A DNA stretch of 63,135 bases, counting the filler, from Hausera hauseri (Eukaryota), in the NCBI GenBank assembly GCA_046269625.1. It is 10 parts of 10 records of this genome, joined end to end, with 100 filler letters (N's around TTAATTAATTAA, not from the genome) between each part and the next. Parts side by side here need not be neighbours in the genome. Positions count along the whole stretch, not along the records: positions 22,969 to 33,372 come from JBJURY010191082.1; 9 more parts are not named here. One strand, given 5' to 3'. Of the stretch, positions 5,237 to 42,470 are shown piece by piece. Position 1 is the first letter of the stretch. Every line of letters starts with the position of its first letter. The position numbers and the translations under genes are program-made. The notes under the pieces are model-generated. The model searched no databases. It was not told where the DNA came from and worked only from the letters and a program-made list of their open reading frames with translations.

Positions 5237-6210
5237 CATCACAAGTATGTCCCACTTGCGATTCCAAGTATGTCGAAGGTCTGATACGTTATGTATCACC
5301 TTTGGACATCGGCCGTGGGACTTGGCAAAAGCCCATTTCCCTAAAAGCAATAAAAATTAATTAATGTAACGCTATTACCTATTCCGCTAGCACCAAACAA
5401 GAGAGCAGTATTGCGATTGGTGCTAAAATCAAACGGAATTGGGTCAATCAGGAACTTGCATTCCGGATGGACCACCACTTCCTTTTGAAACTTTCCATAA
5501 AGGAAACTTTTTAATTGATTATGTCTGATGATATATTACTGCCGGTCAACTAAAGTTAAAATTAATTAAATATATTGCATATTAATTTGTTACCTTGAAA
5601 GATACTGTGTCAAGTGCCTCGTCATAAGAAGAAGCATCGGTGATTTGCCGATACATTGCCTTATTTGACGTTTTATCATTCATTATATCAATGGGGCAAA
5701 CGCCCCATTGAAGGACAGTCGCTCCACCAAACGTTTTTTTGAAATGGCTGCGGTAAATCTAGAAACAATAAAATTAATTACATTAAGAAAAACGATTACT
5801 TCATATAAGTCATCGTTTGTGGGAATTGCGTAGCTGGCACGAAATACATTACTGAAGGTATGTAGCCTCATCGGAGTTTTCAGATAAACCACGTGCCTTT
5901 TGGATTTACTTCTTCCTGTAATCGAACGTACGTAGCACGTTGCTCAAACACGCCACGCATTTCATTCATTTAATCTTAATAATCACCAAATATACTGGGA
6001 TCTCGCCGAAAAACTGTCATGTAATTTCAGCAATTTTCACGATGTTCTGGCTTCTAAAACAATAAAATAATACGGTAATAATAATTAACGTACAGGGACA
6101 TCTTTAACGGATTTCACGTATTTGGATTGCAGTGCACCCACGATATCTTCCGGATCTCCGCGAGATAATGAACTTTTCTGCTGCTCTTCGATTTGGTTGC
6201 AATGGATCAT
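5237..6210 (-). pseudogene. rep: Intron-containing geminivirus/CRESS-like Rep (HUH endonuclease + SF3 helicase), degraded, cut by contig end
   Basis: Minus-strand GT-AG introns at 6093-6054, 5799-5759, 5593-5550 and 5378-5341. Manual splicing gives NYMTVF (motif I position), YVRLQEEVNPKG/HVVYL (motif II region), SHFKKTFGGATVLQWGVCPID, AMYRQITDASSYDEAL, YIIRHNQL, Walker A LLFGASGIGKW, then FAKSH..P.VIHNVSDL..WDILVM leading to Walker B. Several stops and frameshifts. Confidence 0.72.
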
Positions 6211-6222
6211 CTGATCTATTGT

Positions 6223-6507
6223 TTGTGCAGAACATTTGAGGAAAGCTCCTTACTTAATTCCAAATTTCTTAAACATTATTAAATGTTATGCGATAAATAT
6301 TTATTGATAAATATTTGTAGGAACAATTATTTCAAGAATTTTGAAAGTAATTTCAAAATTTCGCCAAATTATTGTCTTCGAAAACAATTGTCATTATACA
6401 TTACCTCACTAATGTTGCTCCAATTAATTTCCGTATTGTGATAAACATTTACAATGGATAATTTGACAAATGTAGTTCCATTGGAAACAATACGAATTGT
6501 CTTAACA
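6223..6507 (+). repeat. About 285-bp direct repeat, second copy at 10791-11078
   Basis: Near-identical text TTGTGCAGAACAT..AAAGCTCCTTACTTAATTCC ... GGAAACAATACGAATTGTC in both places. Confidence 0.9.
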
Positions 6508-7131
6508 ATATCATTTCAAACAATCAAATGGCAAAAGTTTTATGTTTTCTGTCTGTTCCAATCCGTTTATTACGATATAACATCGAATAGTATTAATAGT
6601 AGTATGGTTGCAATGGCCTTCAAAAATTATTTTCTAGATACTATAAATATAATTTAAAAATAATTAGAATTTATTGGCAATTAATAACAGTTCGGTATTC
6701 ATATATTTCAACGAATAGGGTAAAAATGGGCATTGTGGCTCAGTGTTGAGGGATCCAGCAACGCGTTGTATTAGCTAATTACGAACTGCATTGAATTTAT
6801 CATGGTCATCGGTTTCATTTAAGCATGTTTGTACACATCAAGTAATACGTTATACACAAATGCATATTCTCCATTAATAAATAAAACATTATCTCAAGTT
6901 CAGCTATCACTTATTACATATTGCACTAAAGTTATTTATAAAATATTCGACATCCGATATTTGTATAATCAACAGTAATGTAGTGTACAACTATTACTGA
7001 TTTGACAAGGAATCTAATTTGGGTTGATGAAATAATGTGGAAGTTCCTGTTATCATAAATAAATGGATTGTTCAATTTTTACATATAGAAATAATCAGAG
7101 AGAGAGAGGCGTACAAAACATAATGCTGATA

Positions 7132-7465
7132 ATAACTGCGGCTAATATCTGACTTGTCCTAATAGCAATAGCCAAGGTTCGAAAGAAAATATTGTACCTG
7201 TATGTGATAAGTTTCTTATAGTAAATAAAATGAATTACATAAATCTATTTGCAATTATTGTTTATTGAAATTAAATTGATGATATAATAATTATATAACA
7301 ATGATGCAACAATGATAAATAAATCATATAATTCTAATTATTAACATTCATCCATTTCATTATAATACTATTTTCTAGTCATTATTTATCACTTATAGGC
7401 AAATTTTATTTTTTCAAACCTTGGCCGTTGCTGCTAGGACAAATCCGATGTTAGCCACAGTAATA
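7132..7465. mobile_element. MITE-like element with about 60-80-bp imperfect terminal inverted repeats
   Basis: CTGCGGCTAATATCTGACTTGTCCTAATAGCAATAGCCAAGGTTCGAAA matches the reverse complement of TTTCAAACCTTGGCCGTTGCTGCTAGGACAAATCCGATGTTAGCCACAG; AT-rich non-coding core. Confidence 0.7.
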
Positions 7466-7868
7466 TAAAAATACTTTTTCAAATCAAAGCCAAAATAACT
7501 CGATTGAAGATTTTAAACGTGGTAGCTTTTAGCCCTTGTTTAAATATACCCCACTACGTATAAGAATTTTATACTTTATCAAATTATCTGGAGTTTATAT
7601 TCTTTTCAAATTTGATTTATAAACTTTTTATCTTTTTGTTTTATGATTTTTTAACGTTTTGCCGAAATCAAACATTTTCGTCTAATGTTTAATATATAAT
7701 CTGTGGTTATTTATATGCGATTGTTAACGGACTCGGCCACGTCGTATATCAAACGAACGACAACGGCGACGCGGAAAGTACGCCACGGTTGAAATTCAAC
7801 ATGAACCCAGCGCACGAAGCCTAAATGTCTGTTTACTAAGCATAGGAGGAAAGAGCTTTTATGTTTTC

Positions 7869-8276
7869 ATGCTATTTTTCATCTTATCCAACATCAATTG
7901 TCTGAGGCACATAAAGAAGCCCAATCTTCCTCTGCAGCCGGTTTCAATTCCATAAGAAATCCCGACAGTGTTTTCTCATAATCCCGAATTCAGATTGATG
8001 ATTTTTCCTACCGGTAAATATCGAAGAATTGGTTGCAAACAGCCGCTTGTGAATCCAATTGTCCATGTCTCAGATTATGAGTTTACAGTTGTAATCAAAC
8101 GAATTCAATCAATAACGGTAACGTGTTGCCTACAGCGTTTAATAAACATTTATACACTGGCAACGAAGATTGACTGTATTTTTGAACCGGAATTATTTCC
8201 CTCACATATATTTAATATACACCTTACGTTGGGGAAAATGGTCATTGTCGGACTCAAATCGTTGAATTACGGTTGA
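7869..8276 (+). pseudogene. Compact, divergent TATA-binding-protein-like gene, intronless, one in-frame stop
   Basis: LSNINC.. / LMIFPTGKYRRIGCK / IQSITVTC..INI / FEPELFP / GKMVIVGLKS parallel the two TBP repeats (LIFxSGKxxxxGAKS, YEPELFPG). Confidence 0.65.
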
Positions 8277-9520
8277 ATTACCGTTCATAAAATAGTCAAT
8301 GAAACATTGGATGCTATTGTTTAAATGATTCAAAATTAAATCATTAGCAAAATGTGTATATAAACAACTTCATATTTCATTATTTTTCATTTTTCTAAAA
8401 AGAAGAGTAATAACGACAATGAAGCTCAATAATAATAATAATGATAATTTTTCAGACATCAATCCGATTGCGATAGCGAAGATATTAAATCATTAACAGA
8501 TTTTCTTAGTGACAATAATGTTGATAATAATAACAAATGTTATGCCTGCGCAATTTTTGAATCTACTTTTGTAATTGGCGAAATTAATTCATGTTTAATA
8601 TAATTTACAACGATATAAATTAAAAAACCATGAAATCATTATTTTCCTTGCGCTTAAAGCAATGGACGAAAAATCCACATTTATTCCAAGTCCAATTTCT
8701 GCATCGGCGTAGAATATTAAAACATAATATCGGAATAGGATATCTGCATGGAATATCTGTATGGAATATCGCATAGAACATTTTGCATTGACATAGGAGA
8801 TTCACGTCAGCATTGAATCTGGTCATGAATTTTCATTCATTATTTGTAAGTTTCTGTAACAGAAGTAATATGAAAGATTTATTTTAAATCCTGAAATCAG
8901 TTGAAATCAAAAATATAAACAAAAATTTAAATATTTTATCATATTTTCCTGGCAATATCTGATCCCTAGGGGTTTCCGTCAACTGTCTCAACGAGGAAAT
9001 TGATTTATTTACATATTTGTAAATTTTTTTCTACATTTTGGGGTTTTTCTCTTTTTCCATTTTGCATATTTGATAACAACTCTTCATTTGAACTGAACTT
9101 GCGCATAACAGTCAGAGATACTTAAATTTCACAAACTGTTTGAGCGACAGCATTTACTACAATCACTTAATCGAACGTTAGATTCAAGTTTTAACTAAAG
9201 TTCTGTTTAAATATATTGTGAGTAACGACGTAAATTATAATAGTAATTTTGTTATTTAAAATCCATATTCAGAAACAAATTAAATTCAATTCTTTCGAAT
9301 TGTTGTTTAATTTAATATTTCCAATGTCAACTTTAACGAATAATAAAATACCTGCAAAATTCTCGATAAAACGCATGCTGCATACATGCGTCCGCAGTGC
9401 ATTATATCAGCGTACGTGTTCATATCTAAAATATTGAACTATCCAATAAAAATAATAAAATCAAATTTTATTAAAAAATTCAATGCCATTTAATTAGGTT
9501 TGCTTATAGTTACTCATGAA

Positions 9521-10192: not shown

Positions 10193-11178
10193 AAATTTAC
10201 TTTTAAAAGTTAATAAATGTATTTTTAACAGTTTCATTCTTTGTACTTTTTAACACAATAAACATTGATAAACAAGTACGAAAAAATAATTAACAATATT
10301 TTTAAAGAATATTAACAGAGGTTCAAAAAATGCATAGAATTTTTACATAGTTTGTAAAATAAATTTTATATTAAATTTATATTTTGTGTATAGAGTATAC
10401 TTCGAAAAACGGTTAAATGGTTTTGCAGTGTTAGTCTATTAAAAATAATTTATTATCAGTTCATGAATTAGTATTCGAGGCAATGACCAAATTGAGTAAA
10501 ACCTATTCATTACATACGTTTTAAGTACGTATCGGCCAAATTCATTTTCCAAAACTCATTTCGTTGAACACGTTATTGAATTTATTTGAATATGATTAAA
10601 AAATTCACTATTTTGATATTTAAATTACACCAATATTAAACAATTGAAACCGCCAAAGAAGTTTCATAACCACTCTTCCGGAATTTGTGTTTGATTTGTC
10701 TATTTTGATCTGCAGTAAAATATATCTTTGGGTCAACTGGAAATAATATCTTGAAATTTTCACTGGATGTTCTTTTGTTCAGAATCTTTGTTGTGCAGAA
10801 CATATGAAGAAAGCTCCTTACTTAATTCCAAATTTCTTGAATATTATTAAATGTTATACGATAAATATTTGTTGATAAATCTTTGTAAGGACAATTATTT
10901 TGAGAATTTTTAAAACAGTAATTTCAAAATTTCGCAAAATTATTGTCTTCAAAAACAATTGTCACTATACATTATCTCACTAATGTTTCTCCTATTAATT
11001 TCCGTATTCTGATAAATATTTACAATGGATAATTTGACAAATGTAGTTCCATTGGAAACAATACGAATTGTCATAATANNNNNNNNNNNNNNNNNNNNNN
11101 NNNNNNNNNNNNNNNNNNNNNNTTAATTAATTAANNNNNNNNNNNNNNNNNNNNNNNNNNNNNNNNNNNNNNNNNNNN

Positions 11179-14100: not shown

Positions 14101-15578
14101 AGGGGAAGAAGAGACACTGCTGCTCCAGAGTCGATTAAAAAATTAATCGATTGAGTGAGCTTACTTGTTATTAAGGCGTTTAGAGTAAATACGGCATAAG
14201 TACGGCTATTACGGTGGAGATATTTGCCTGTGCCAGCATGCGCCAAAACATCTGGCGGCTTTAGCTGTTTTTTAAAGCTACAGGATTTAAATTGTTGGAA
14301 GGAGTAGGCTGTGAGGAATTGGAACGGCCGATAAAGGTGCAACCTGCAATGCAGTTGTGCGCTTTGGTGTTAAATTTATTGCGGTATATACAAACGATGT
14401 CAGGTTGTCTGAAACTAGGCGCATAAAACCTACATCCTAAGCAACATTTATTAGTATTATTTTTGAATTTGGTGCAATAGTAACACACCATCGGTCGCGC
14501 AGGCGACCTCGCAAGTCTCGAATTTTGAGATTAAGTGCGGCTATGGCCCGCATCAAAATGATTCCGTCTCAGCATGTTCAGGGCATCTATTTTTGACGTG
14601 ATTAATGAGACTGTCTGATATATTGGCATTTTTGGTACGAAAAGAATTTATTTCTTTGTTCAGAGTTGATATTTTGTTAATCTGTTGTGTCGGTGCCCTT
14701 TGTAGCGTAGCAGCGACTAATGGCGGTGATTATGAACGTAGTATTTCGTGACTTTAATCAGCTAATTGTGCCAGTTTTTGTAGTGTCTCTGTGTTCTCGA
14801 TTATTGTGAGGAGTGCACGAATGTCTCTTGGTAGAGACTGCAAAAAGTATCTGCGTAGTAAATCAACGTTATTCGTCTGGTTGACACCCAAAGTGCTCAA
14901 CTGAGTTAATGCGGTCTGAAAAAACTCGGAAGGTTGTAAATTTCCTATAGTGTTATCATTAAAATACTTGTGGATGATATTAGCCAAAGACGGCTTTGTG
15001 ATTTTTAAGACCGAATTGAAGAGAAAATGGTATAGATCGCTGCTTTTAAAGACTTCTGACAAGTTGGAAATCTGCGATTTTGTGTGGGAGCAAGAGAATA
15101 AGAAGGATGTTTGCCTTAAGAAAAGCATCAATGATGTTGTTGGATTTTAGCCATAAAGCATGAAATTCCAGCCATGTTCGGCTGGGATGTTGTTAGTCAG
15201 CAAAGTATTCTACACAAGGTAAGTTGAAGGTAGATGACAAAGATGGAGCGGATTTTTGAGGTACGCTGATAGTGGTAACGTCGGCGAGGACTTTTTGGTC
15301 TTTAGGCGAGGCTTTCGGATCAAACCCGCCGAGTAGACAAACATGGATAGTTAGAAGAAGAGTTGACGATCTAGAAGTATAAGGTGCAAGGATTTCGGAT
15401 GACTGGAGAAAAATGCCCTTATAAGAAAGGCGGAAATTGGTAAAATTTGGTATGGTGTGTCAACACATCAGACAAGTTTTTGACCGCGGCTGTATAACTT
15501 GCATGACATTTGTGTACCTGTTGATTTTGAAAAAAGAAAACGAGTTGGATTAAATTGTCCAAAACGCCAGGGGAATAT
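11179..15578 (-). mobile_element. Ty3/Gypsy family A copy 2 internal region (gag, protease, RT, RNase H, integrase; degraded)
   Basis: Gag with two CHCC-type boxes (14261-14491), protease FLIDSGAAVSLL, RT MPFGLKNAAQTFQR/YIDN, RNase H TTDTS..LEFFSRKL, integrase DIVGPLP/TDQGPQF. Confidence 0.95.
14241..14273 (-). promoter_or_regulatory. Putative -1 programmed frameshift signal (gag to pol)
   Basis: A-AAA-AAC just before the gag stop, followed by hairpin CGCCA-gatgttt-TGGCG; same layout at 46879-46910 (A-AAA-AAC-TGA + GCCGT..ACGGC) and degenerate near 28225-28260. Confidence 0.7.
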
Positions 15579-15630
15579 TGTGGCACGCAGGGTGAAGGCA
15601 TCGCAGGCTCCCGGCAAAGTGGTTCCCGGT

Positions 15631-16218
15631 TTATCCAACCGAGAAACTAACCATCGAAGTCGAAATCGGACAATCCCTGCCCGTTAGTGTCGGGATTTTA
15701 GAATTCGAATTTTTGCTTATTGCTAGAGTTACTTTTGAATGATATTTTATGGCGTTAATTGCGATGTAAAGGGTATTTCTTTGGCCGTTTAATTTCTCGT
15801 CACCTGGTTTCGAGACAAGAATATTAGATTTTGATAATATCAAGAAAACTTCTAAAATACTGGTTACCTTTTTCTCGTAAGTTTGAACAATATGATGTCT
15901 CAGCGTTTGAGATTTTATAACCAAAATGCCAGTGAAAATGCGATTATGTTTGTTTTTAGTGGTTCGTGTATTTTTTAGAGCTTGGTGATTTAACACGTCA
16001 TTGCTCATGTTTCTCAGATTGTTCACATATGAAACTCCAAAATCAGTGCATCTATCCTGTAGTGAATCAAACCACTGAGAATTAAGAATGGGTTCAAATT
16101 TTAGCAAAACCAATGCATTATTTTCATGAGGCGAGACTCTAACGCTACTGATTTTTTGTCCAAAAAAACGACTAAGAATTTTGTGGTGGTCTATTTCTAG
16201 TGTGTTTGGAGAATCCAA
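15631..16218 (-). CDS. Hypothetical protein (cargo within putative LTR)
   Basis: 195-aa ORF, family not recognised. Confidence 0.3.
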   Translation of the reverse strand: MDSPNTLEIDHHKILSRFFGQKISSVRVSPHENNALVLLKFEPILNSQWFDSLQDRCTDFGVSYVNNLRNMSNDVLNHQALKNTRTTKNKHNRIFTGILVIKSQTLRHHIVQTYEKKVTSILEVFLILSKSNILVSKPGDEKLNGQRNTLYIAINAIKYHSKVTLAISKNSNSKIPTLTGRDCPISTSMVSFSVG

Positions 16219-16517
16219 TAATAAACTAAAATGTTAGAACCCAGCAACTGTTCAATGTAATGACTTCAAACGACACATCGAAATAGCTTTTTAAGCAATC
16301 CCAAAGGAGCCTTTCTTTTTCTAACGTTAACATGTAAAATTGTGTCAACCGAAATTTTTGTGGGCTGTTTGCTTTGGACGTGGCGGCGGGTTGTTTCCCT
16401 TTGATATTGCATAAGACGCAAAAGGCGTAGATAAAATACCCAAGAATTTTCGACGGAATATTATCAATTTTACACCTAAATGTCGTACCATGCGGTAAAA
16501 TTATAGAAATAGTCGCC

Positions 16518-18649
16518 TCAGTTAAAGGCCATATAATAGCTCAAATTACATGATAAACTCAACGAATGGCAGACGACCAGCGACTGGTGATCATTGTCAA
16601 CTTCCATGCACAAAGTTTCGGCAGCTCCTTTTTCAGTGAGCATATTAGCAATTTTGTTTTTTTCACAAGGAGTGATCTTGGTAAAATGCAGGGCATTAAC
16701 GTTCATTTCTTTTCTGTTCAACAGGGCTTCAATTATTTCCAAACTAACAGTATTATTAATAGCCAAGTGAAGTAACGTTTTACCTTGCGTTAAACCTGAT
16801 TCGTTTACTTCCATCATATATCTTCCATCTGAAGACTTCAGATTAAGCAACGTCTTTACGACTTCTCATAAATTGTTGATAACTGCGATATGTAGCAGCG
16901 AATGGTTAGTACTTTTTATTCTTCGTAGCGAATGAAGTTTTTGCTCTTATACATATTCCAATAAAACGTTCAAAATGGGTGAATTTTCATATTCGATGGC
17001 ATGTGAGACAGAATTTTTATTTATATCATCGCGAATATTAATATTACATTTTGTGTGTAGTAGCTTTTTGACAAATTCGGTTGATATATTACAAGCTGTA
17101 CTTACAATTAAAGGTGTATGCTCACTTATGTTAACCAAATTCAAAGCCCACGAACAATATGTGCATGCTATTACCAGAATTCTTTCCTCTTGTTTAATAT
17201 AACCTTTTAATACTGTGTTGTGTAATGGGGTCATTACGTCATCCTGTAGCGTAAACACCACTAGCAATTGCTTCTTAAATATTTTAACTGTTTGATAGTA
17301 AAATTTACCGAACGCGTATTTATGACCAATTTGTGCCACTTCGCTTGGACTTTTCTTCGTTTGCGTATTATTGTGACTTAAATCCAATTTACTATCGACA
17401 GGCCTTCTTTTCGGAGGGACAAATATGATTTCTTTTATTATTTTATTTCGTTTCCGTCGGTTTTTAAAATATTTGATATTTATATCACCGTTACTTTTAT
17501 TTTCCTCTTCGGAAAAGCGTTCTTCATAAACACTATCATCCTCTTCCGGAATGATGCACGCGGAATGAGAACCAAATCCGGAGTCCTGATCATAATATAA
17601 GTTAAATCTCCTCACTGTTGATATGGAAACATGTAGTTCATTTATGACGCAATCAGTTTCGATAATTGATTTAAAGGGTTGAGACTCCAACTTGGCCATT
17701 GAAAATATATTCACATAATGCTGTGTATGAATGAGTTTTTGCAATGGTGGTTCATGTAGAACTTGATTCATTGGTTCTTGTTTTCGTTGTTGAGTTCCTT
17801 TTGGTAAGAATGTATTTGTCCATTGATAATGGCTGTCGTTACAAACAATGACAAATTGGCATTTAACAATGAATGTTAACTTAACTGCAGGAAGTGGGGA
17901 AACAAATATAAGCCCATCTTGTTGTTCGCGTTGTAACGTTTTATTTCTATCAGTTATTGAGACATACGGATGAATATTATTATCACATTTTATTTTCTTT
18001 TGTAAAACAATAATTAAATGTTCGCCATTTTCGGCAACGTATTTCGAAGCCATGCACATTATTTCTATTTCGGTATTTTCTTTCGCATTTGCTACCGAAT
18101 GAATCTCAAAAAATTACCCGATATTCCCATCGATCATCGCCAACGAATTGTCATAGACAAAACACCGATATAAAAATCCAATATTCTTTGTGATATTAAT
18201 AGTAAATTTTAAATTTTAGGAATATAAAAACATAAAAAGTGCCGTGCATTACAGAATGAAGAATCCAATAACCCCACGCTGAATCGGAATGTCAGGTGGT
18301 CGAGTTGGTCCAAAAAGCATAATACAGTTCAGTGTGGTCTGTGCACATCCAAGTAGCCATGCGAGTATCGGGTGTCTGTACGGTTTTCCAAAAAGCGCTC
18401 GACTGAAAGCTTAGCCGGTTTCCTGAGTGAATTTGTCGGTAAATTCTGACAACATTGTCGGTTCTGTATGGTAAAATTACGGTGTTCCACCTTAGCTGCA
18501 TTAGAATAGTAAAATATAAAATTCATAACCGGTGCTTTTTGGTGCCTACGCTTAACTCCGACAATAAAAAGCTTCGGCACCGTAAACTTCTCCCAATCCA
18601 ATAGTAAGCAAAAGGCGTAAACATAAATATAATCAGAATAATCCAGCAT
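16518..18649 (-). pseudogene. Divergent Rel-homology/IPT + basic NLS + ankyrin-repeat gene (NF-kB p105/Relish-like architecture), disrupted
   Basis: Ankyrin motifs are clear (TPLHNTVLKG, HTPLIVS, GKTLLHLAINN). The upstream ANAKENTEIEIMCMASKYVAENGEHLIIVLQKKIK..QQDGLIFVSP resembles the RHD dimerisation (IPT) domain; basic KNRRKRNK lies between. The RHD call is by eye only. Confidence 0.5.
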
Positions 18650-19139
18650 TTGATTTCAGAGACCAATGATAATTGAACAAAAGTAAAAATGAAAGCGGAA
18701 AATCCACTGTATTTACAAAATGGCCAGCAATAAATTTAATTGAAAAAAATTTTTTGAAAAAAAATCACTCAAAAGTATATTAGTTAATTCAAACAAAAGG
18801 AGCGTGAATTGCTCACTCTGTAACGCCGGCACTTATAACAAACGTGATGAATAACTTTAACGATACGTTTTTACAAATATACTCGAATAAACATTTTCGT
18901 TTCAAGAAATACGTCGGTATTTCTTCCGTTTTCGGTTTGTTTTTATTGTCGTAACGAACGTTTTTTACCGTGTTCGAGAAAATGCAGTCGTTTCGATTTA
19001 TTGCATGGTTCGATGTCCTGATATGTTAAAGTACTTAAATCATCGGTTGATTTGCGCTTTTTGTTGTCGATGGTTCAATACCGGTTTGAGTTTAAAATTT
19101 TTCATAACGATTAGTAATATTGTGATCCATTATTAGTTT

Positions 19140-19490
19140 CCAATAAACTGTCGCAAGGTAGAATAATTTTCTCATAATTAATTTGCAGTGCATAAACGTG
19201 ATTGCTACTCATAGTTCAATTTCATACCAATTTTCGGCCAGAGTTTGTTAACGGTCACATGATCATAGCCGGCATTTTTACGAACTAATTTGTGTAATTT
19301 GTACGGATCTAGATGTCTTTGGTTGATATTTGGTACTTTCAATTTGTCGGATCCTTGCAATCGTATAAACTGGGATAATTTCGTCAGAAAATTCAATTTA
19401 ACTCGTGATTGGGCTTTCATTTCACAAAGGGTTTGTACTCTCGGTGTAAACTGAAGTGTGTTGACATTTGCAGAAAATGTCGGTTTAAGG
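19140..19490 (-). pseudogene. KDM5: KDM5/Lid fragment (end of JmjN + ARID), intronless
   Basis: KPTFSANVNTLQFTPRVQTLCEMKAQSRVKLNFL..LQG..LKVPNI..LDPYKLHKLV..W.KIG..YEKIILP matches KDM5 [22 protein letters not shown]. Confidence 0.85.
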
Positions 19491-19636
19491 AAAAAGCAAA
19501 ATCACTGGCTGAGCGGCAGCTAAACGAGCTAAGGACTGACCAAAAAGGACCACGACGGAGAGCGTTCCCGTCTACCGGTACCGGGTGACAGATAAATCTC
19601 CAGGCTTGTGGTGACGTCTACAGCCGCGGCACCACA

Positions 19637-22968: not shown

Positions 22969-23260
22969 TACCATTGGTGGTCGTTCTATAGATGTAACGT
23001 TCCATTTTGTTGATTCCAGTTACTTTCTAGTTAACAATTTCTTATTCCACAGTTTGTACAAATATTATAAAGTTATATGTAGTTTTTGTCTGTGCGCCTG
23101 TTAATTTTTGGGCAAGTCAAATGTTGATAACTATCAATTTCAATGTGTTTGTACGTGATTAGCTACGTTAAAAAATAATACAATTGATTAATCTGAAATT
23201 TTGAATTTTTTACTCTTTTTTCATTCTACCAAATGTCGGGATTATCGTTGGAACGACATT
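22969..23260 (+). repeat. Segment shared by the two LTRs of copy 4 (direct repeat of 32207-32500)
   Basis: TACCATTGGTG...GTTGGAACGACATT is near-identical in both copies, followed by abrupt divergence. Confidence 0.92.
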
Positions 23261-23388
23261 GTTGGAACATTATTTATCTAACGACTACGTTTCTTCAACA
23301 ATGCAAAGATTCAACCGAAGTTTTCATTACAGCGTACGACAATTTCCTCAAGTAAAACATTACATCAGTCACTAAAAGGAATCGAGAT

Positions 23389-26300
23389 TTGCAGTCTTTT
23401 TTGAAAAGAACGGATCCATTATTGAACACAGAAGATTTATCAAAGCTTTATCTGCTTGTTAAGTCATCAAGGCTCATTATGCCCTCTGATGGGAATTCAA
23501 CGAGCGACAAACGCATTCTATCGGGAAAAGATGCACTGTTAGTCGTTTGGAAGAAAATTGTTTTATGCAAAAAGGATAAACGATTTTATTATCTGGTTTA
23601 CAATTCATCATTAATTTACAACGAAATTATTAGAAATTTTTTGCGACCGAATCTCTACCAGTACTTGTGCAAATTTTTGGATCAAGTCTGTAAAGCATTG
23701 GAAGAGGTGAACGCATCAAATTATTCACGGAGAGCTGGACTATCATTGTACCTTTTACAGAGTCACACTGATGCTGGTCATACAGAAGAAATCGTTCAGT
23801 CATCCGATCCGACGGCCCTATTTGTTGAAAAATATGCTCCACATCTTCTTAAAGAACTACCGATTATTTTCATAAACAACAATATTGGAAAGGCCAAAAA
23901 ATACCGGTGGTATGCAAAGAATATCCCGGAAATGCAAATTTTTGTTAGAACTTGTCGACTTCGAAACAGGAAAGACAAGGGAAAAGACGACGGATCATTA
24001 TTACTAGAGGCTAAGAAAATATTCATGACTCTAACCGAAACCAATGAAACGGGACCGGCACCGGATGCCAAGTCAGATTCTAAACTATCTACTATCACTA
24101 TAAATAAGATATCTGTGGAACAAAGGTGCGCATGTTTGTTCGAATGGGCAAAAATCACTCCAGAAAATAATTTACAACGTCTGTACACACTGTATTAGTA
24201 AAATTCAAGGCATAGTCAATGAAGAAATGCTTTCAATTGCACAAGAAACTGTACTGATTAATTATGAATTGACGGTTTGCGAAGCTGATGGAAGTAACTA
24301 TAAAATTTCTCCGGCTCTGCTAAAAATCCGAATGGTAGCCCTGGAAAAATGCCACTTACTTGTCGATAATATTATTCAATCTGGAAATTCCAGATTAATA
24401 GAGCTCGGATGTTCAGCTCTGTGGAACCTCTGTCTGTCATTATTGCAAGCCAACTTGCAAAAGAAAACCACGGGCCATTTATTTTTGATTGCTGATTCCT
24501 TGGAAAATATTGGATGTCTAAATTATCCTTTCTCTTGCCAAGCTCACATTGAGGTAGCAAAATGTTGGGCAAGAACCGAACAATCGAGTAATGCCATCGA
24601 ATATTTCAAAAAAGCAATACTTTTTGACGAAACAGGAGAATATTCCGAAATAATTGATTTCTTTGTTAATAAAATTCAATTGCGTGAAAAGCTATACGAA
24701 ACCCCGTCTGATCCTTGTGATCATGCTCTTCAACTGTTAGAGCAAGTTCAACCGTCGATCACGACTGGCGAGGTTTCTATTCAAAAACTACAACCTTTGT
24801 TGGCTAAAATAGGTCATTGTTTCTCGCCAGATGATTTTAAGGTGGTGCTCGACAATGGCATATCCATTGAACAGTCGGTGGTGTTCGACGAGGTCCAGGC
24901 TAAATATTTGAAAATGTCTTTTTGGGAAAATGCTACAACTTGATTAAAGACATACCTACAGCGTATTGGAAACATTGATGATAAAAAGAGAATGAACGTA
25001 TGGTCGGATCTGGTGAAATTGTCTCGAAAACTCCAGTTATAGGATATTTGTTGAGTGGCCGGTCATTACGTTGTGTTATATGATGACTGCCAGTAAAAGA
25101 ATCAGTTCCAGACAAATATCGAAAGTGTGTCGGTAAAGGGATCACGAAATCCAGATAACGCTACGGTCAGTTAACCAAACACCTTACCGGTAGAACCACT
25201 AATGGTGGAGAATAAACTATTTGAACCATCAGATGATGCGAAATCCAAGAAAAGAGAAGACAGTGACAGTGCTGGTGGGGTCATCGTAAAACGTGGTAGA
25301 TATGAGAAAGAGTTAGTGAAGATCTTCGTTGACGTTTATTTCATTAGAGCAGAGGCTTTTGTACAGTCATTACGAAATGAAGGTGCCCAGCTATTTACGT
25401 TTCCAGAACAACCCAAAGATCTTAAGAAACATCCAAAGGGTTATGTAAAGATACAATGAAAGAAGACGCAGATTGGAGAAATTTTTGTGAGGTTTTGAAA
25501 AGAATTTTCGAAATGATCGTTAGCTGCTTTACTCAAACTGTAGCAATATCGATTGATCCCCAAGAACAGTGGATCACATGGAATGCAGCAACATACTTAT
25601 GGAACTATAGTATTCATATTATTACACTCGTCAAGCCTGAGATTCTCGCATCGAGTTTTCAGATTATTTATGACATAATTCGCCATGTCATGAATGAACA
25701 TGGCGGAACCTTTGGTTCAGTATGGCCTTATCTTGGTTAATGGAATGGTCCAACGATATATGCCGAATGTAAATTTTGCCATTACCTGAATTTTTAACGT
25801 TCCAATATCTGCTAATGCTGGCGATAAGAAAGGCAAGGAAGGACTAGATTCGCCGAAAACTTAAACAGTTTCACCTGCTGCACAGGTTGACCAGACGGCT
25901 ATTTTTCGGAAAACCATGGAAATTTGTAAATATCTTATGGACTACACAACATATGTCAATATACCGAATTTGGACAATGTTAATTCAGCGAATAATAGCA
26001 ATAAGGCAATTCTGTTCTCTAAATTGATTGATATTCAAGTAAAAGCTTGACTTGGTAAAATGTGGGCACAATATAAGTAAGTGTTACAACAAGGTATAGG
26101 TAGATAATTGGGCGTTGCTGATCCGGAATGTGAAAGCTGTAAGACAGGAAATATTCGGGCAATAACGGCAATAAATATGTTGTAGATTAGTCAAAACGAG
26201 TTGTACAAATTTTCGGATACTCCGAGTATCGATGAAGGCATTAAACTGGCGGAGAGTTGCCAATGGTCCCAGAAATCCTTTCCCATGCAACGTTTTCTTA

Positions 26301-26600
26301 AACTGTGTCATTACATAATGAACGTCGGTTTATCAAATACATTGGTAAAAAACAAGATAACTCGAAAAACTCACACCGATATTGTTTCACATCTTCATGC
26401 AAGCATCAATCAGGTGTTGATGCAATCACGAACATTGAGTCGGGGTTTTGTAAGATTTCGATTAAGGAAAATTACTTACTAACTATTGACAAACTGTTTA
26501 TGGAGCTCTCTCGCATATTCAGTTGTTTGCCACCAACGAAGAAAAAGCCGTTAGTACCAGATAACCGAATTCGAGCTAATATCGAAATTTTTTATGGTGA
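23389..26600 (+). pseudogene. CFAP46: CFAP46 (TTC40) N-terminal part, intronless processed fragment with stops and frameshifts
   Basis: RFYYLVYNSSLIYNEIIRNFL, LWNLCLSLLQANL, CQAHIEVAK, REKLYETP..D.ALQLLEQ and WITWNAATYLWNY match CFAP46 motifs; coding blocks are collinear with no evident introns. 3' boundary approximate. Confidence 0.85.
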
Positions 26601-26920
26601 CCTCAGAAGTGAAAGATTCATTATCAATACGAAAAAAGTGATGAATCGTCAAGTTCTCCAATTGTCGTTAAAGGTAGCTTGTTGCTTACTGAAAAAAAAC
26701 GACGCACCGGTCAATAAAGTCCAAATTACCGATCCCTCGGACTCGTCCATGTCGATTGTTCTCGTGCCATGCACTCCGCGGGAATATTTGAACCTCAGCG
26801 AATTCTCGGACATCGTCAATAAGGGTAATCCAGTCGAGAGAACATGTCATATTTGGCAAAATCCTGCAGACGTCTTAACGTCAGAGACATTCAGACAGGT
26901 TGAAGTTCTTTTTGCAGATT

Positions 26921-26952
26921 TTCGCCCACCAATGCGATCATTGTGCCACTAC
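26921..26952 (+). repeat. 3' terminus of the 5' LTR of copy 4 (inverted repeat of the LTR start at 31945-31984)
   Basis: TTCGCccaccaaTGCGATCAttgtgcCACTAC is an imperfect reverse complement of TGTAGTGcctgaaatgTGATCGCActgggggtttaGCGAA; AATAAA at 26713. Confidence 0.6.
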
Positions 26953-29900
26953 TCTGCGGGCGGCATGCTCAAACCTCTCCCTCATCCAAACAAAAATAGC
27001 TCATATTACCTCACAGCAATTTTCTTTTCTTGCTTTTAGCAATAACCAGCATATAAAAACCATAAGAGCTCCATTGAACAACAGTACAGCTCTTATACAA
27101 CTCTTTATCCTCCTTATTTAATACTTTTGACTTCTAGTTCACCTATCGAGGTCTTATTATACATTCTACCGACTCTTTACTGTTCTCATGTCACAAACAC
27201 CCGATCATCCATCTTACGCTTCACTTTCGCCTTCGGGGTAAATCGGAACCAAATCCATCTTTCTTGGACGAGACATCTACAAATACATACAATATCTATT
27301 GCTTACCAAATTCACAACAACCACGAACTTCGCTGAATCTACCTTGTGTGGATTTTTTTCTTGACAAAAACAATTCTATTAAACCATGACTCCAATTCCA
27401 CCAACAGTAATTAAAATATAACATCACTGATTATTTTGTGCGAGCCAACAATCTTTTAATTCTTCTGCCTACTAATGTTAAGCAGCAGATCAGAAACATC
27501 TCCGAACTGCTTCAATCCTCGACACCTTACGAAACACTCTGTGAGGTAGTACTCCACAACACGGATCCTCGATTGACAACATTATATAAAAATACTTCAC
27601 CGACCATGCTATAAGAAACCAAAAGCTATCCGATTTTCTTAAAACGGCCATTTTGCAGCTTAGCGCCTTAGGCGTAACGCCTACGAAAAACGCGGATTTA
27701 ATTAGCCATTATTTCTTGTCGCCTTTGCCCACCTCAATTAGAGCCTTGCTTGCCATTGTCGACGAGTCTACTGCTATTGAAAAACTGGCCATAATGACTA
27801 ATACATCCTTTAAATTCCTCCATTTTACAAGCTATAGACACAATATTCTTCACTCAACAGTTTTTAATGATTTGAACCATTATAGCAGTCAATTTCGGCC
27901 ACTACCACCCAACTGAACAATATTAAGGGGCCTCAGTAAAGTGAAGTCAGACCTTCAAGGAAGCGAAACACTTCAAGGCACTCTACGCGATCAATTTCAC
28001 CTGGCGGATGCATGGCTTGCTTCTATTATACGAGGTTTTGAAAGGATGCAAAAAAATATTTTTTGGGCTGCGGGTTCTACAGCGAATGATACACTGTGGA
28101 CAACCCTATTTGCATCTACCACAATAAGTTCCAGTCACAGGCTATATCATGTGTGCCTGGTTGCAAATATTACCAAAATAAATCTCTTCTTTTTTTCTCT
28201 CATTCTTATGTTTTTCCAAATCCTTCAAGAAACTAAGAAAGCCGCCAGATTTCATGGCACATTCTTCTATAGGCAGTACATTGAATTCTTCTGGCCGTCT
28301 TAATACCACCTCTGCAGTCTTTCTGTTGAAATCTGCAGTTTTCTCTGACAATTCATTAAATATAGACTTTCTCATTGACTCTGGGGCCGCCTTTTCCCTT
28401 TTATAGCTACCTTCCGCTACAACGTCCAACAATTTCCCTTCGCCTCAACTCTTCACAGCCAGTGGACATCCTTTGCACATTGTTGGCACCACAGAGCTCA
28501 CTTTTACCTTCCACCATTTACCAGACAAGTTTGTTTGGAAGTTCTTCATCGCTAACATAAATTCACCAATAATCAGCTAAAATTTCCTAGCCGCACACGA
28601 TTTGTTCGTTGATTGTAAATACGGCTATCTGCTGTGCAGGAACTCGATAGCAAATCCAATCAAATGTCTTACAGACAATATAGAGAGCAATGCATTTCAC
28701 TCCTCTATAAATATGTTAAACGTCTCGTCAACTATTGACAAAACCTTCGATAAAGTCTGTATTTCTTCAAATATGAATAGCAATTACAAATCTATTTTAA
28801 AACAAAATCCAAATTGGGTGTTGACAGTAGCAATGCCAGTTGCTTTTCGTCAATTACTGAAACTGCTTCTGATAATATGCATCAACCATTATTATCTCTC
28901 GACTCCGATCTTAGATCATACATCACAACGTCTTGCTTTTGCATAGTTAAAAGAGACATCAACTTCAAGCCTCCATCCTCAACTTATCATCATATAGTAA
29001 CAGAGCATCAGAGGCCTATCAAACAAAAGGTCAGACACATGTCGACACGCAAACATAAAGCTGTGAAACAGCAATTTAATAAACTGGAAAAGTCTGGCAT
29101 CATTCGGTGATTGAATTCACCTCGGGTTTCTCTTATTCATGTAGTAGCAAAGAAAGATGGTACTTATAGGCCATGTGGCGACTATCGACAATTAAACAAC
29201 CTGACCATTAGAGATGCTATCCACTACCACTCATTAAGGATATCCTTAATAACCTCAATAACACCGATATCTACTTTACCATTGATCTGTACAAGAACTA
29301 TCATCAGATTCCTGTTGCACATGATCACATTCCAAAAGCTGTTGTCGTAACACCATTTGGCCTTTATAAATTCATATTGATGCCTTTCGGCCTACGTAGC
29401 TCATCTAAGACCTTTCAACGCCATATTGACACCGTACTCTCAGGTCTTGATTTTGCTCATACATATATAGACGTCATACTAGTCGCTTCCACCTTTATTA
29501 AACAACATCATAAGCATCTCCAAATTATTTTCCGCAGATTGCATCAAAGCAACCTGCAAATTAATTTCTCCAAATGTAATTTCTTCCAGAAACGCATCAA
29601 CTTTTTGGGTCACATAATTATTCCCGATGGTCGTTCCCCCAGCTTGATCGCTTACAACAGTTGAAAAATGTGACATTACCAACTACTACTACCGACATTA
29701 GAAGTTTTCTAGGGACACTGCATTTCGTACACAAATATGTGCCACACTGCTCCAAACTGACGGCACCTTTCACACACCTCTCATACGGGAAGAAAAGACA
29801 ATTAATCTGCTGGATTCCTGATCTAATAAACCAATTTAATCGCCTTCGTGAAGGTCTATAAACCGTCAAAATCCTGGCTTTTCCAAAACCAAACGCGGAA

Positions 29901-31944
29901 CTAATACTAACCACCAATGCCTCAACTACAGTCACTAGTGCGATATTACGCCAAATATACAATGGTGTCGATGAGCCGTTAGAATTCTATTCCGGAAAGC
30001 TCACGCAACCAGAAAGCCGATACTCAACATTCGATCGTGAACTCCTGGTCATAGTTCTATAGGTAAAGCATTTCACGAATTTGCTTCTATCACGTCAATT
30101 CGTCATCCAAACCGACCATAAACCTCCACTTCATATCATGACGTTAAAACAGCCATCACCCAGACAAGAATGACAGATATCATACCTTTCGACATTTAGT
30201 TTTTCTATGAAATATATTTCAGGCACCAAAAATTTAGTCGCAGACTTTTTGTCCCTGTCGGTCAGCTCAATTGTAGTTCAGCCAGTTTTCTCCTCTGAAA
30301 TCCCGAGAAGTAATCAGCCATCATCTGATATCCTCCAAGCTTTTAAATATATTGAGATTATTAATGGCATTAATTACGACACATCTAACTCGACTAATAA
30401 AAAAGTCATTCTTGCTCCATCGTTACAAAAGACAGCTTTCACTCACTTTCACACTCTTCATTATCCGGGTTCGAAAGTCACATTTCGTCTACTGCAACGC
30501 CACGTTATATGGCCAACTATGCGTACAGACGTACAGGTCTGGGTTAAGGGATGTGTAGCATGTCAGAAATATAAAGTCCATAAACACCTAAAGACACCAC
30601 TTTACCACTTCCCTTGTACGTCTCGTTTTGACACCGCTCATTTGGATCTTGTCAGTTCTCTACCATCCGATAACGGCTATCAATACGTCTTATCTATAAT
30701 GGATCGCGCTTCTCGCTGACCGGAAGCCTTTCCTCTTTAATCAACCAATGCCGATTCGGTAGCAGATGCCTTTATCAAAATATGGATCAGCCGCTTTGGT
30801 TCGCCACGTCACGTTATAAAGGATCAGGGTCCGCAATTTGAAGCTGATCTTTTTAAATCTCTGGTAAAGCACTTGGGGATAGCCCATTTCCATACAACAC
30901 CGTACCATCCCCAAGCAAATGGTCTTCTTGAAAGGTTTTAACGTAAAATGAAAATTTCCTTGAAAATCTTGGCAAACAACAGTCATAACTGGACCTCAAT
31001 TCTTTCTCTTGCCCTACTCGTTTAGCGCAACATGCCATCCACCACCACACGTTGTGTTCCAGCTGAGGCTCTTTTTAAGAAACCAATTTGTGCCCTATTT
31101 GAGCTCTACAATCTCGATGAAAGTCCGTCAGATAAAGTTATTCGAGCGGCACAGTCTTACTTTGTAGATTTCAATTCAAACACCTTCTGCCGCCTTATAA
31201 ATAAAGACAAATCGTATATTCCAGAGAACCTATACTCAGCCAAGTTTGTATGGCTGAAGGATCCGTCACCTTCGGGTTTTCGGCCTCAGTACGTTAATCC
31301 TTATAAACTACTCAACCTTTCTTCGCAAAACGCTAATATTTTACGTAAGGACAGACCTCAAAATGTACACATTTCTAATCTTGAGCCAGCATTCTTCGTT
31401 GATGATGACCAGGACAACAGCCTGCCCTGTTTCAAATCTTAACTCTAACTTCTCTGCCCTCGGGCCATCGTCTACTGTCCGCGATGATTTTGATCCGTTG
31501 CAGCTGTCGCTATCGCGTCACAATCAGATCATTTCATTTCCTCCATCGTTCACTGCTCATTCGCCACTTACTTCGTCGTAATCGCCTGCAAATCCACCAC
31601 TCATTTCACCTTCATCGCATGATTCGCTTCAATCTTTAGTCTTGCTTTCTTCGCGTAATCCTTTTTTCTTTTCAGCTTTTCTTCCACTCTCACCTCTTCA
31701 TAATCATCCTCCAAAAACACCACAAAATTTATAGCATCTCTCCCTCGAACAACTCCACAAGAACCAGCAACATTTAACAGGTCACGCCAAGTGACATTTA
31801 GGACCTGCAGTAAGCAGAAGTTCTTAGATGGAATCTAACGTCTGACACATACCAAAACCGAATAGGTACAAGCTTCTCCTTTTCTTACGATATACTACGT
31901 TTATTTTTCCTTCTTTATAATCTTTATTTTACCACGGGGGGTGA
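26953..31944 (+). mobile_element. Ty3/Gypsy family A copy 4, full internal region (gag-pro-RT-RH-IN, degraded) with PPT
   Basis: FLIDSGAA, RPCGDYRQLN, MPFGL, YIDV, CVACQKYK, DQGPQFE; PPT GGGGGGTGA before TGTAG at 31945. Confidence 0.95.
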
Positions 31945-33372
31945 TGTAGTGCCTGAAATGTGATCGCACTGGGGGTTTAGCGAACTGGTAAGGAGATTTT
32001 CCCCGCCATGTGACTATAATATTAATTTCGTTACTTTTGATCGGAAGTAGTTTGATTTTATTGGTATTTTGTTTTCCTTGCAAAATTTGAAATTTTGTAG
32101 CATTTATTTGAATTTTTGTTCTCAACTAAGAATTTCATTTGGTGTATAGAATGTAAATAGTTGAGCCAGTTTGTGTTTGATGGCTTATTTAAATCCATTG
32201 TGATAGTACCATTGGTGATCGTTCTGTAGATGTAACGTTCCATTTTGTTGATTTCAGTTACTGTCTAGTTAACAATTTATTATTCGACAGTTTGTACATA
32301 TATTATAAAGTTATATGCCGTTTTTGTCTGTGTGTCTGCTATTGTTTTTGGGCAAGTCAAATGTTGATAACTATCAATTTCAATGTGTTTGTACATGATT
32401 AACTACGTTAAAAAATAATACAATTGATTAATCTGAACATTTGAATTTTTGACCCTTTTTTCATTGTACCAAATGTCGGAATAATCGTTGGAACGACATT
32501 TACAACTTACAATTCTTTGTAATTTCAGTCATTGCAGAATTAATCAACTTTTCTTTTCTGCGCAAAGCAGACAATTCTTGAGTCAGATATTAGAGGTTTT
32601 TTTTCTTCATTTTATAAGTTGGGCTTGTTTAATAGTTTTTCTGGTGGAAACACTTCAAATGTGATTATTAAGGTATTTTTGGACAAAACTGAATCCAATT
32701 TTCTTAGTTGATAAAAATTTGGAAAACCACTTGGAATGTTGCGTTCACTTTCTAGTTTCACGTAACATACCGATCTTCTATCCGTTTTTATTTTGTCTGA
32801 GCATATGACGTCACCTTGTTAATGCAGTAGAGACATTTGAATTATTCCACGAAAAGGCCATTCCAACGTTTCATAATCTTCACCTTTCACCAATGCAAGA
32901 AATACAGATAATTGTGTATATCTGCCAACACCGTCACCATCCGGATATACTGTAATACAGAATTGGTACTGTTGGATACTGAACGTACCACTGGTAATGA
33001 TTACATTGTTTTTTCTTTTTTCGTTGAAATTGGTTAATTTCCAAATGTAGGTATTCATAATGAATGAAATCAGTATATAGGTACATGCTTATATATACAA
33101 TATTGTAGCCGATCAGAGAGCAGGAAATTTACAGACTGTAACGTCTGTAAGCCACACTTTATTCCTATCTATCCAATGACGCTTGTCATCAAACGGGTCC
33201 AGCGCTTTCTTCTTTCCTTGTATTGTCATTTGTGAGGATATAATTGATAACAGAAGTTCTAAATTTAAATCAGATACAATTTTAAATTTAAATTGAGATT
33301 GTAATTTGGAATAATTTAGAAAAATTTAATTAATATTAATTAATTAAATTTTTTAAGGTAATATTGCAAATC
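31945..33372 (+). repeat. 3' LTR of copy 4 (truncated by contig end), carrying MATH cargo
   Basis: TGTAGTG directly after the PPT; contains the segment shared with 22969-23260. Confidence 0.65.
32612..33058 (-). pseudogene. Stand-alone TRAF-type MATH domain gene, one internal stop
   Basis: YIWKLTNF..SGTF..YQFCITVYPDGDGVGRYTQLSVFLALVKGEDYETLEWPF; the frame continues past the stop to GFPNF..NTLIITFEV; intronless. Confidence 0.85.
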
Positions 33373-36723: not shown

Positions 36724-36870
36724 TGTGATGTCCGTGGCGGCCGGCGCCCTCTGGCCCATTTGGTTGGACACGGCCGGGCTACCGTCACGTCGGACCCATA
36801 GGCGGGCCTCGATCTTCCGCCTCAAAAAAAATTTTCGACAGTTCCGATTTCCCGTCACTTAAGTTTAATC
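36724..36870 (+). repeat. Family A LTR head inserted into family B gag
   Basis: TGTGATG start; CGGCCGGCGCCCTCTGGCCCATTTGGTTGGACACGGCCGGGC homologous to 1892-1990 and 54690-54798; no PPT in front. Confidence 0.75.
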
Positions 36871-36890
36871 CCAGTAGTCAAACCTCACAA

Positions 36891-40418: not shown

Positions 40419-40659
40419 GCTGAGAATCATAGACAGTGCTTGTAAAGAAATAGAAATAACGACTAAATGGGTTTATTCACGTGCAGAATTTCGTATCAGA
40501 CCAAGGGTAGCAACCAGGTTGAGAAGCCATAGAGGTCTCATCTTAAGAAGGTCGAGTGGTGAACTACTGAACTCAGATATTTGAACTTTCTTTGTATATG
40601 TGCTTTTGTATCAGTCATTTGACGTAAATCGCGATTTTGCTGTGTTATGAAGAATTGTT

Positions 40660-42470
40660 GTCTTCTATCCTGTACACTTCTATCCCTCACTCAGATGGCC
40701 TCCGGACGGTCACTTTATTCCTTGACCGGGGGTCCCACCACACTATTGCCACTACAACCCTCGTCCGCCCGACTGAATTGGTCTTGACCCTGAACTCTTT
40801 CGAGTTCAACTGCCAGTTCTTTGACCAAATCAGTGGAGTAGCTATGGGGACTAAGATGGGGACTCCCCATATTGATCCTGAATCAGTCAACTTCCTTGAC
40901 ATCACTATCTCTATTCGAGCCTCCCTGATTACCACTTCTGTCTTTTACAAGCCCACGGATGCCCACAGTTACCTCCTGTACAACTCATCCCATCCTCGCC
41001 CCTGCGTCAACTCTCTCCCCTACTCTCAACTATTACGCCTTCGCCGACTATGCCAGGATGATGGGGATTTCCTCCAGCATGCTCAGGACATGTTAGACTT
41101 CTTCCGTAGAAGACTATATCCGGAAAAAGTTCTGACATCCGCCCTCCAACGTGTTCGCCGGATCTCTAGAGCCACAGCCCTCACATCCAGGCCCGTCAGC
41201 TCCTCTGATAGGGTTAAACTTGTTCTCACTTTCCACCCCCACAGCGCCTCTGTTAAACGGATTCTTTTCCGTCATCTCCCCCTTCTCCTCTCTGACCCCG
41301 AGACCCGGGAAGTTTTTCGTGATATGCCTCTCGTTGCCTATCGACGTGACCGTAACCTAAGAGACCTCCTTGTTCATAGCCGTCTCCGTACGACCAGTGG
41401 CGTCCCCCTTGGCACTTCACCGTGCGGGGAACCTCAATGCCACACCTGTCCCTATGTCCTCCAGACGGACTCGGTGCAGTTCCCCAACGGAACTTACACT
41501 ATACGGCACCGCTTTACCTGTTTGTCTCGGAATGTCATATACGCGCTTGTTTGTAGATCCTGCCCCATGCGTTACATAGGCGAAACTGGTAGGACTTTGA
41601 AAGAACGCTTTCGAGAACATTGGTTGAACATTGATCGGCGCAAAACCTCCATTATTGTGGATCACTTCAATGGCCCTAACCACTCTGGGGTCCGCGACAT
41701 CATGATAACTGCCATTCATTCATGCACCGCAAATACCAGGGCACGTCGATCTTCTGAGAATCACCTTATTTCGTTTCAACACGATCGTTCCACAGGGTCT
41801 GAACACGAATCTTTCAATCCTGTAACTCTGAGCCTCTCACTTCTTTGTCTCCCCTCTTCTCTACTGTCCTCACGGCTTCCCCATTCACCCTGTTCGGTTT
41901 TCTCTGCCCCCTCTCTCCTTCTTTCCCCCACCAAACCCCTCTTTACCTGCTCTCGTCTTCTGGTAATTTTCCATTCTACCTCTGTGCCGGCCTGTTTTCA
42001 CACCCCTTCTTCCCACGTGTTTCCCCCTTCTGTCCACAATCCATGCCTTGACCCTCGCACGCCTCATTGCGTCTCAATCTCTTGCAATCTCTTAACCAGC
42101 CGTGGAGCGTTCATTTCTATTGGACACATTCATCAGTTCAGCTAAGTCTATTGTTTTATATTTTTATTTGTGCCACTACCATTTTTCTCTTCATTCTTAT
42201 TCTTACTTATTACCATTATTACTGTTATTGCTCTTTCCTTCCTAGTATCTTCTGTTTCAGTCACTCGTCCATTGTTCTGTCCTTTATTCCAGTTGTACTA
42301 CTATCTCCCCCCACTAACTTCTTCTCACCATGTAAGTCGACTCTTCTTTCTCTCTCTCGATGTAGTTGTACCTGTTATCGTTCGTCGCGTCCTATATGCT
42401 TGTATACCTGATGAAGACCTTGTGGTCGTAACGTAGTGCTTGTTCTTTGTCTACTGGTAAGACCCTATAA
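40660..42470 (+). mobile_element. Penelope-like element, internally deleted (RT remnants + GIY-YIG endonuclease)
   Basis: LYTSIPH, QISGVAMGTKMG, FLDITI..YKPTD.HSYL..SSHP, NVIYALVCRSCPMRYIGETGRTLKERFREH. Confidence 0.92.
42405..42438 (+). ncRNA. Minimal type I hammerhead ribozyme motif of the Penelope terminal repeat (core variant GUAA)
   Basis: UAC-CUGAUGA-A-GACC(UUGU)GGUC-GUAA-CG-UA-GUG; GAAA is replaced by GUAA. Confidence 0.7.

Follow-up and report, generated by a model that had tools for sequence, protein, structure and literature searches.

A diverged direct repeat, a templated seam and a possible cargo-bearing LTR in a Gypsy retrotransposon of Hausera hauseri

The window, the whole stretch of DNA that was analysed, is 63,135 nucleotides from Hausera hauseri (assembly GCA_046269625.1), in which 10 contigs are linked by N's. 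The region considered here, positions 22969–33372, is one of these contigs (JBJURY010191082.1). It contains the 5' part of a CFAP46 gene, a Gypsy retrotransposon and a MATH-domain gene, together with two copies, A and B, of a 292-bp direct repeat. The features in order are:

22969–23260, + strand: copy A of the repeat, 30% GC, its left edge being the contig edge
23232–23260, + strand: hairpin in copy A, a 7-bp stem (arms 23232–23238 and 23254–23260) with a 15-nt loop (23239–23253)
23261–23291, + strand: templated patch, in which pieces of 8, 5, 5, 6 and 4 bases are re-copied from 23241–23257 (loop and 3' arm)
23292–26350, + strand: 5' part (about 40%) of CFAP46, broken and intron-free, with firm homology over 23530–26314
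26351–26874, + strand: open frame in sense orientation that separates CFAP46 from the LTR tail, no Pfam match, a possible second cargo piece
26875–26952, + strand: candidate LTR tail that repeats the LTR head, inverted and imperfectly, and has CCACTAC at its end
26953–27332, + strand: leader, to which related contigs align from about 27010
27333–31440, + strand: gag, protease, reverse transcriptase, RNase H and integrase in Gypsy order, with stops and frameshifts
31936–31944, + strand: polypurine tract
31945–32025, + strand: LTR head, beginning TGTAGTG, its first 66 bases 52% GC
32036–32206, + strand: AT-rich stretch (27% GC) between the head and copy B
32207–32500, + strand: copy B of the repeat, containing a hairpin
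32471–32501, + strand: hairpin in copy B, an 8-bp stem with a 15-base loop
32612–33055, − strand: broken MATH-domain gene, antisense to the element, with many related contigs in run X1
33113–33325, − strand: short frame without Pfam match and an AT-rich palindrome, with very many related contigs

Copies A and B are 91.8% identical over 294 columns, 24 of which differ (K2P 0.080), and they are 9238–9240 bases apart. In both, the matching ends after CGACATT, at 23260 in A and at 32500 in B. The preliminary description had reported this pair and its shared endpoint at the base of a hairpin, and what it says of the sequence holds. The 24 differing columns mean that this is not a collapsed repeat. 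The first base of copy A is also the first base of the contig, which makes the left end seen here an assembly edge, a point that the preliminary description misses. No third copy of the repeat was found in exact-pattern scans for the hairpin in viral contigs and for the repeat core in metagenomes. A likeness between copy B and the LTR at 43073 was dropped (p 0.27–0.33).

The gene after copy A had been named as CFAP46, which phmmer and a PDB match confirm. There are 67 phmmer matches at E ≤ 0.001 among 1.84 billion proteins, the best of which (E 6.5e-22) carries the name CFAP46 at source, and the single PDB match is CFAP46. The closest matches, at about 30% identity, are from molluscs and an echinoderm. 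The piece is sense to the element and colinear with its homologs (codons 99–1027 against profile positions 107–987). For the open frame that follows it, atlas matches are below 0.9 and lean to bridge-like lipid transfer proteins, which is a lead only. The antisense MATH gene described after copy B is likewise present (PF22486, E 1.6e-23); word-index homolog searches bearing on the end of the MATH protein gave no match. The short frame beyond it is presumably similar to the terminal part of a DNA polymerase B of the Polinton type.

Between these genes lies a Gypsy retrotransposon, now dead, in which the Pfam domains RVT_1, RT_RNaseH, Integrase_H2C2 and rve are in the Ty3/Gypsy order. Its 3' LTR starts where the polypurine tract gives way to TGTAGTG, an arrangement that is the same at four other elements in the window. 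Protein scans for relatives in viral contigs produced 21, 21 and 334 pattern matches, of which none was confirmed, and exact-pattern scans of viral contigs and metagenomes found no further copy of the LTR-head family. A bacterial promoter scan of the window was empty or at chance. The element may belong to the Mag lineage, which it presumably resembles. Its 5-kb body and short GC-rich head are like those of the Mag elements of Culex, described in the available part of PMC3286476 as mostly 4–6 kb with LTRs of 119–304 bp.

The inverted match between the LTR head and the candidate tail is specific. None of 400 shuffles reached its score at 60 and 90 bases, and at these lengths the tail matches none of five other heads. 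There is no primer-binding TGG within 3 bases of 26952, which counts against the reading of an expanded LTR given below; a tRNA scan found no tRNA genes in the window and so none for primer comparison. A short direct LTR pair at 26860–26955 and 31945–32045 was tried and dropped (p 0.27).

The repeats had been described as the two LTRs of one element. Their placement is that expected for parts of two LTRs of one Gypsy element, but the 290 bp are not the LTR proper, since the LTR starts at 31945 and the repeat is rare in related contigs. Copy B begins 262 bases into the LTR, and copy A stops 3.7 kb before the tail. In run X1, a single run that contains 57% of the words, no RNA run being among those listed, contig depth, which is a sum over related contigs at 80% likeness and not a copy number, is 36 for copy A and 80 and 242 for copy B, compared with 549–8442 over 14 bins of the element body. 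The repeat is thus not as common as the body, which shows that most members of the family do not share it. AT-rich, rare and 262 bp past the LTR start, it is not itself the LTR proper. The repeat may instead be a passenger within an expanded LTR. On the same summed scale the depth is 21–50 for CFAP46, 8263 for MATH and 192806 for 33032–33372, where there is an AT-rich palindrome at 33304–33371.

The 1.4 kb after the head contain no tail, and the 4 kb that precede the tail contain no head (at best 7–8 mismatches of 20). An expanded LTR explains both absences without deletions. The 9238–9240 base spacing and a body of 4992 bases would give the left LTR a length of about 4.25 kb, and its layout may be head, passenger, cargo and inverted tail. 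Neither LTR is seen whole, as both run off the contig, and a counterpart of the AT-rich stretch 32036–32206 before copy A would fall outside it.

Elsewhere in the window, Gypsy copies likewise have intron-free pieces of host genes, in sense orientation, behind their heads. The contig at 11179–22868 has two Gypsy bodies in tandem (K2P 0.105), separated by one feature:

15579–19636, − strand: spacer of 4.1–4.4 kb containing a head, a KDM5 piece, an ankyrin-repeat gene and other frames, all sense

The KDM5 piece (E 6e-19) starts about 135 bases past the head at 19636, there are no micro-introns in the spacer, and at 15570–15585 on the + strand a purine run followed by TGTGG is like an inverted polypurine tract plus head. 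As the place where the neighbouring element's LTR ends, ACCACTA at 15270 was dropped in favour of a better candidate at 15579. The KDM5 piece and the layout of sense frames behind other heads count for the LTR-cargo reading; in four regions past heads, the codons in long frames are 422:0, 1012:88, 1054:132 and 305:0, sense to antisense, and the orientation of such frames is antisense only after copy B. Against the expanded LTR, the head of this spacer and the candidate tail at 15579 are not significantly alike (p 0.09–0.14). The head at 36724, in one of the four regions, abuts the gag of a different Gypsy. The CNOT2 match behind it is weak (E 0.003) and the orientation of the segment is assumed, both of which count against the LTR-cargo reading. 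The GC-rich heads at 1892–2050, 36724–36890 and 54637–54798 are related, with some 130–160 bases in common.

Other features are scattered through the window. There is a direct repeat at 6223–6505 and 10791–11076 (91.6% identity, 4.57 kb apart). The DNA between its copies has no Gypsy but includes a TBP-like piece and a Dcp2-like frame that is intact and free of introns; copy two reaches the contig end. A 505-codon frame at 40628–42145 has a GIY-YIG domain (E 1e-4) and is possibly from a Penelope-like element. The decayed frames at 58577–60134 and 47400–51700 we take to resemble Polinton or adintovirus polymerase and structural genes, and those frames of the two regions that were scanned have no Pfam match.

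The gene at 5237–6200 on the − strand has AT-rich GT-AG introns of 38–41 bases, which points to a compact genome. Filtering for introns that are short and AT-rich gives no candidate in the 3090 bp of CFAP46, compared with three in a 964-bp gene on another contig, and none in seven regions totalling 11,720 bases, CFAP46 among them. About 1000 codons of CFAP46 are therefore without introns, by a detection benchmarked on one gene. The Dcp2-like frame, in a contig without Gypsy, is also intron-free, so that a lack of introns may be usual for genes of this host, which counts against capture of CFAP46 as RNA.

The two junctions at the end of the repeat are not alike. Re-copying of GTTGGAAC at 23261 had been noted, and it is indeed there; the extent given for it falls short, as the patch reaches to about 23291, beyond 23268. 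The longest direct re-copy after A is 8 bases, a length that 0.09% of the positions in the contig attain. Of the 30 bases after A, 24 fall within 5-mers that also occur in the 40 bases before, a cover that 0.14% of the positions attain. After B the best is 3 bases direct and 5 inverted (4.9%), with nothing significant. Residual homology between A and B past the junction was rejected (p 0.02–0.08 over 140 bases, 0.09–0.44 over 340). These results support the seam after copy A as a real non-homologous junction. That the patch follows A only suggests that A is the derived seam and B the older continuation. The 15 of 60 joints, 6 of 1161 loose ends and 8 of 9647 pieces listed for run X1 include none at 23260 or 32500.

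A templated patch is also a signature of DNA end joining, and does not point to reverse transcriptase. In synthesis-dependent microhomology end joining, which involves polymerase theta, break-adjacent repeats are re-copied by loop-out or snap-back, with local secondary structure steering the outcome, according to the available part of PMC5728401. The 9.24-kb unit 23261–32500, made up of the CFAP46 pseudogene, the Gypsy and the passenger, could on this basis have been tandem-duplicated at a broken fork or double-strand break, with copy A as the end of the upstream unit, the patch as repair seam, B as the original and the repeat unrelated to LTR replication. The repeat, the seam and the asymmetry would then come from one event, loop-out synthesis of the kind described in that source yielding such patches. 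Diverged direct repeats of similar age are present in two other contigs (K2P 0.079 and 0.105), one of them without Gypsy, and in run X1 the related contigs depart at many sites from the CFAP46 of the window, so that there are further copies. However, a tail only on the left and a head only on the right are left unexplained by duplication, as are the sense, intron-free CFAP46 and the sense gene pieces behind other heads. End-joining junctions share re-copied bases with the seam after A, but they reflect a repair pathway and not a feature of the element, and the patch alone does not separate end joining from reverse-transcriptase stutter. Duplication is the main rival of the reading preferred here but is considered unlikely; if it were right, this would be an ordinary repair seam within a pseudogene-rich region.

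The reading frame across the seam has a bearing on whether the repeat could be native to CFAP46. The 5' arm of the hairpin in A contains an ATG, at 23233, whose reading frame agrees across the seam with the first frame of CFAP46. This frame is open over 23200–23352, running on as CFAP46. The homologs predict an N-terminus about 8 codons upstream of this ATG, although setting the start codon from them was abandoned, as the registers conflict and the homologs are too distant. An ATG in frame and near the homolog start fits native continuity and counts against RNA capture. The repeat would then be the native 5' flank of CFAP46 with its first codons, captured whole into both LTRs, the 3' LTR later being cut at 32500 and joined to MATH, while A is continuous save for a micro-duplication. 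The similar summed depth over A (36) and CFAP46 (21–50), and the 5-base fold-back extension in B (4.9%), are in keeping with this. On the other hand, the patch at B's breakpoint would be a coincidence (0.1%), the corresponding frame in B meets a stop at codon 4, and no N-terminal block of CFAP46 rises above background in any frame (best score 16.4, against 15.1–24.5 in 18 background windows). A native start is judged quite unlikely.

The stem of 7–8 bp reported at the breakpoint is borne out, with 7 bp in A and 8 bp in B, where 5 more pairs are gained beyond a bulge. The breakpoint is at the 3' base of the stem, immediately after the 3' arm CGACATT, which is the side that reverse transcriptase reaches first on sense RNA in minus-strand synthesis. 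The chance that a perfect stem of at least 7 bp with a loop of up to 20 ends at a given position is 0.3–0.4% (in the contig and in its CFAP46 part), or 1.2–2.8% of positions if 2–5 bases of slack are allowed, for a coincidence that was selected post hoc. The fold itself is weak and depends on its context. Folding energies are −7.3 kcal/mol in A and −7.8 kcal/mol in B, with z −0.88 against shuffles in A (32 of 200 as good) and −2.21 in B (8 of 200), and 3.1–3.5% of the 31-base windows in the contig fold equally well. Stability beyond chance is therefore not seen, and in six contexts the mean pairing probability varies between 0.90, 0.47, 0.51, 0.04, 0.05 and 0.00 in A and between 0.99, 0.00, 0.01, 0.73, 0.97 and 0.00 in B. 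There is no match to Rfam families in the window.

It had been proposed that the hairpin is a hotspot of reverse-transcriptase template switching or of recombination, a cassette entry site. On this reading it would stall or attract reverse transcriptase or recombination, and CFAP46 and MATH would have been joined independently at one base. A breakpoint at the stem base is a coincidence of 0.3–3%, the 3' base is met first in minus-strand synthesis, the re-copied pieces derive from the loop and 3' arm, and the stem in B is extended by 5 pairs past the bulge, all of which would fit. Yet two copies make one breakpoint and cannot demonstrate reuse, only A has a junction signature, the stem is weak, lost in several contexts, equalled elsewhere in the contig and picked after the fact, and MATH is antisense, unlike all other candidate cargo. 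At the one other internal repeat boundary that could be tested, 6223/10791, there is no stem of more than 4 bp and no re-copy. The proposal is unsupported and is judged improbable. With the signature in A alone, one event at the hairpin is needed and not two, and at most the hairpin guided this one landing.

The MATH side of the breakpoint might also be due to a second mobile element that carries MATH, which either moved into B at this base or moved out of A and left an 8-base duplication, if the contig is not simply mis-joined. MATH and the region behind it have far greater summed depth in run X1 (8263 and 192806) than the repeat (36–242), and an 8-base direct repeat equals the size of the target duplication made by hAT elements. 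There is, however, no terminal inverted repeat or Helitron-type end visible at 32500, the patch consists of five pieces and not one, and a mis-join is opposed by the 24 of 294 columns at which A and B differ. These possibilities are together very unlikely.

The explanation preferred here, although it falls a little short of an even chance, is that a switch of reverse transcriptase brought CFAP46 mRNA into the LTR and that the element is a recombinant of two copies. In the starting LTR, passenger DNA, the 292-bp repeat, would have stood between a short head rich in GC and an inverted tail. During first-strand transfer, minus-strand strong-stop DNA would have jumped to a co-packaged host mRNA, where a further piece would be copied first and then CFAP46 towards its 5' end. 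The nascent DNA would next have moved to element RNA in the absence of homology, and would have settled at the hairpin's 3' base once several brief false starts on its loop had left the 30-base patch. The product would be a 4.25-kb LTR consisting of head, passenger, patch, CFAP46 and tail. Recombination or tandem insertion may have joined this CFAP46-bearing copy to its parent, after which the ends would differ, the right end retaining the older state of passenger followed by antisense MATH. The earlier suggestion of a recombinant between copies is thus kept as the best reading of the unlike ends. The asymmetric junctions, the specific match of head and tail and the sense, intron-free CFAP46 count for capture. 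The need for two events, capture and then recombination, counts against it, as does the incomplete state of both LTRs in the contig.

LTR-mediated retroposition in animals is known to fuse partial, intron-free pieces of mRNA to LTR elements, with multi-gene chimeras and, at a few junctions, 2–26 de novo bases (Tan et al. 2016, PMC5131818, in the part available). The locus is like these retrocopies in that an intron-free partial host mRNA would be joined to an LTR element, and a 30-base templated patch is present at the putative switch point. As far as that part describes them, the retrocopies replace part of the internal frames between matching LTRs, mostly with microsimilarity, whereas here the gag-pol layout is complete and the cargo, which precedes the LTR tail, is apparently between head and tail, on one side only. 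The retrocopy layout, in which cargo replaces internal frames between LTRs, is therefore not what is found.

Elements in tandem provide a second comparison. The accounts of Tf1 tandems formed by integrase-independent cDNA insertion (PMC11042837) and of Triticeae complexes in which elements share an LTR (PMC1950507) give, in their available parts, the order body, LTR, body with ends from two parents, as in the contig at 11179–22868 and as would be the case here; no host genes are described within the shared LTR in those parts. Strand invasion at the bases of hairpins in retroviruses concerns, in the part of PMC3187697 available, strong hairpins, whereas the hairpin here is weak. Kilobase-sized LTRs are on record (PMC3485330, in part), and those of Ogre reach 1.9–6.5 kb, a length that the available part of PMC6431247 does not attribute to captured host mRNA. 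Judged by titles and the starts of abstracts, the open literature that was searched lists no Gypsy of an animal whose LTR contains host mRNA, which speaks weakly for novelty.

What deserves further attention is the LTR that may carry cargo. The claim made for the hairpin is not proven, and the hairpin is of little weight unless further copies break there. A wider reading, which is rather doubtful, is that the LTR serves this animal Gypsy lineage as a cargo bay, head and inverted tail enclosing kilobases of host mRNA pieces (CFAP46, KDM5, ankyrin and perhaps CNOT2) that arise from errors of strand transfer, so that autonomous copies with gag-pol whole amplify and shuffle host genes. In its boldest form, with the hairpin as a reused landing site, it is highly improbable. 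In the LTR-driven retrocopies known from animals, the element's own genes are replaced (PMC5131818, in the part available). If cargo is carried inside the LTR, the element would stay autonomous, and the cargo would be doubled in each cycle and placed behind the LTR promoter, which would be a gene-shuffling route like that of Pack-MULEs.
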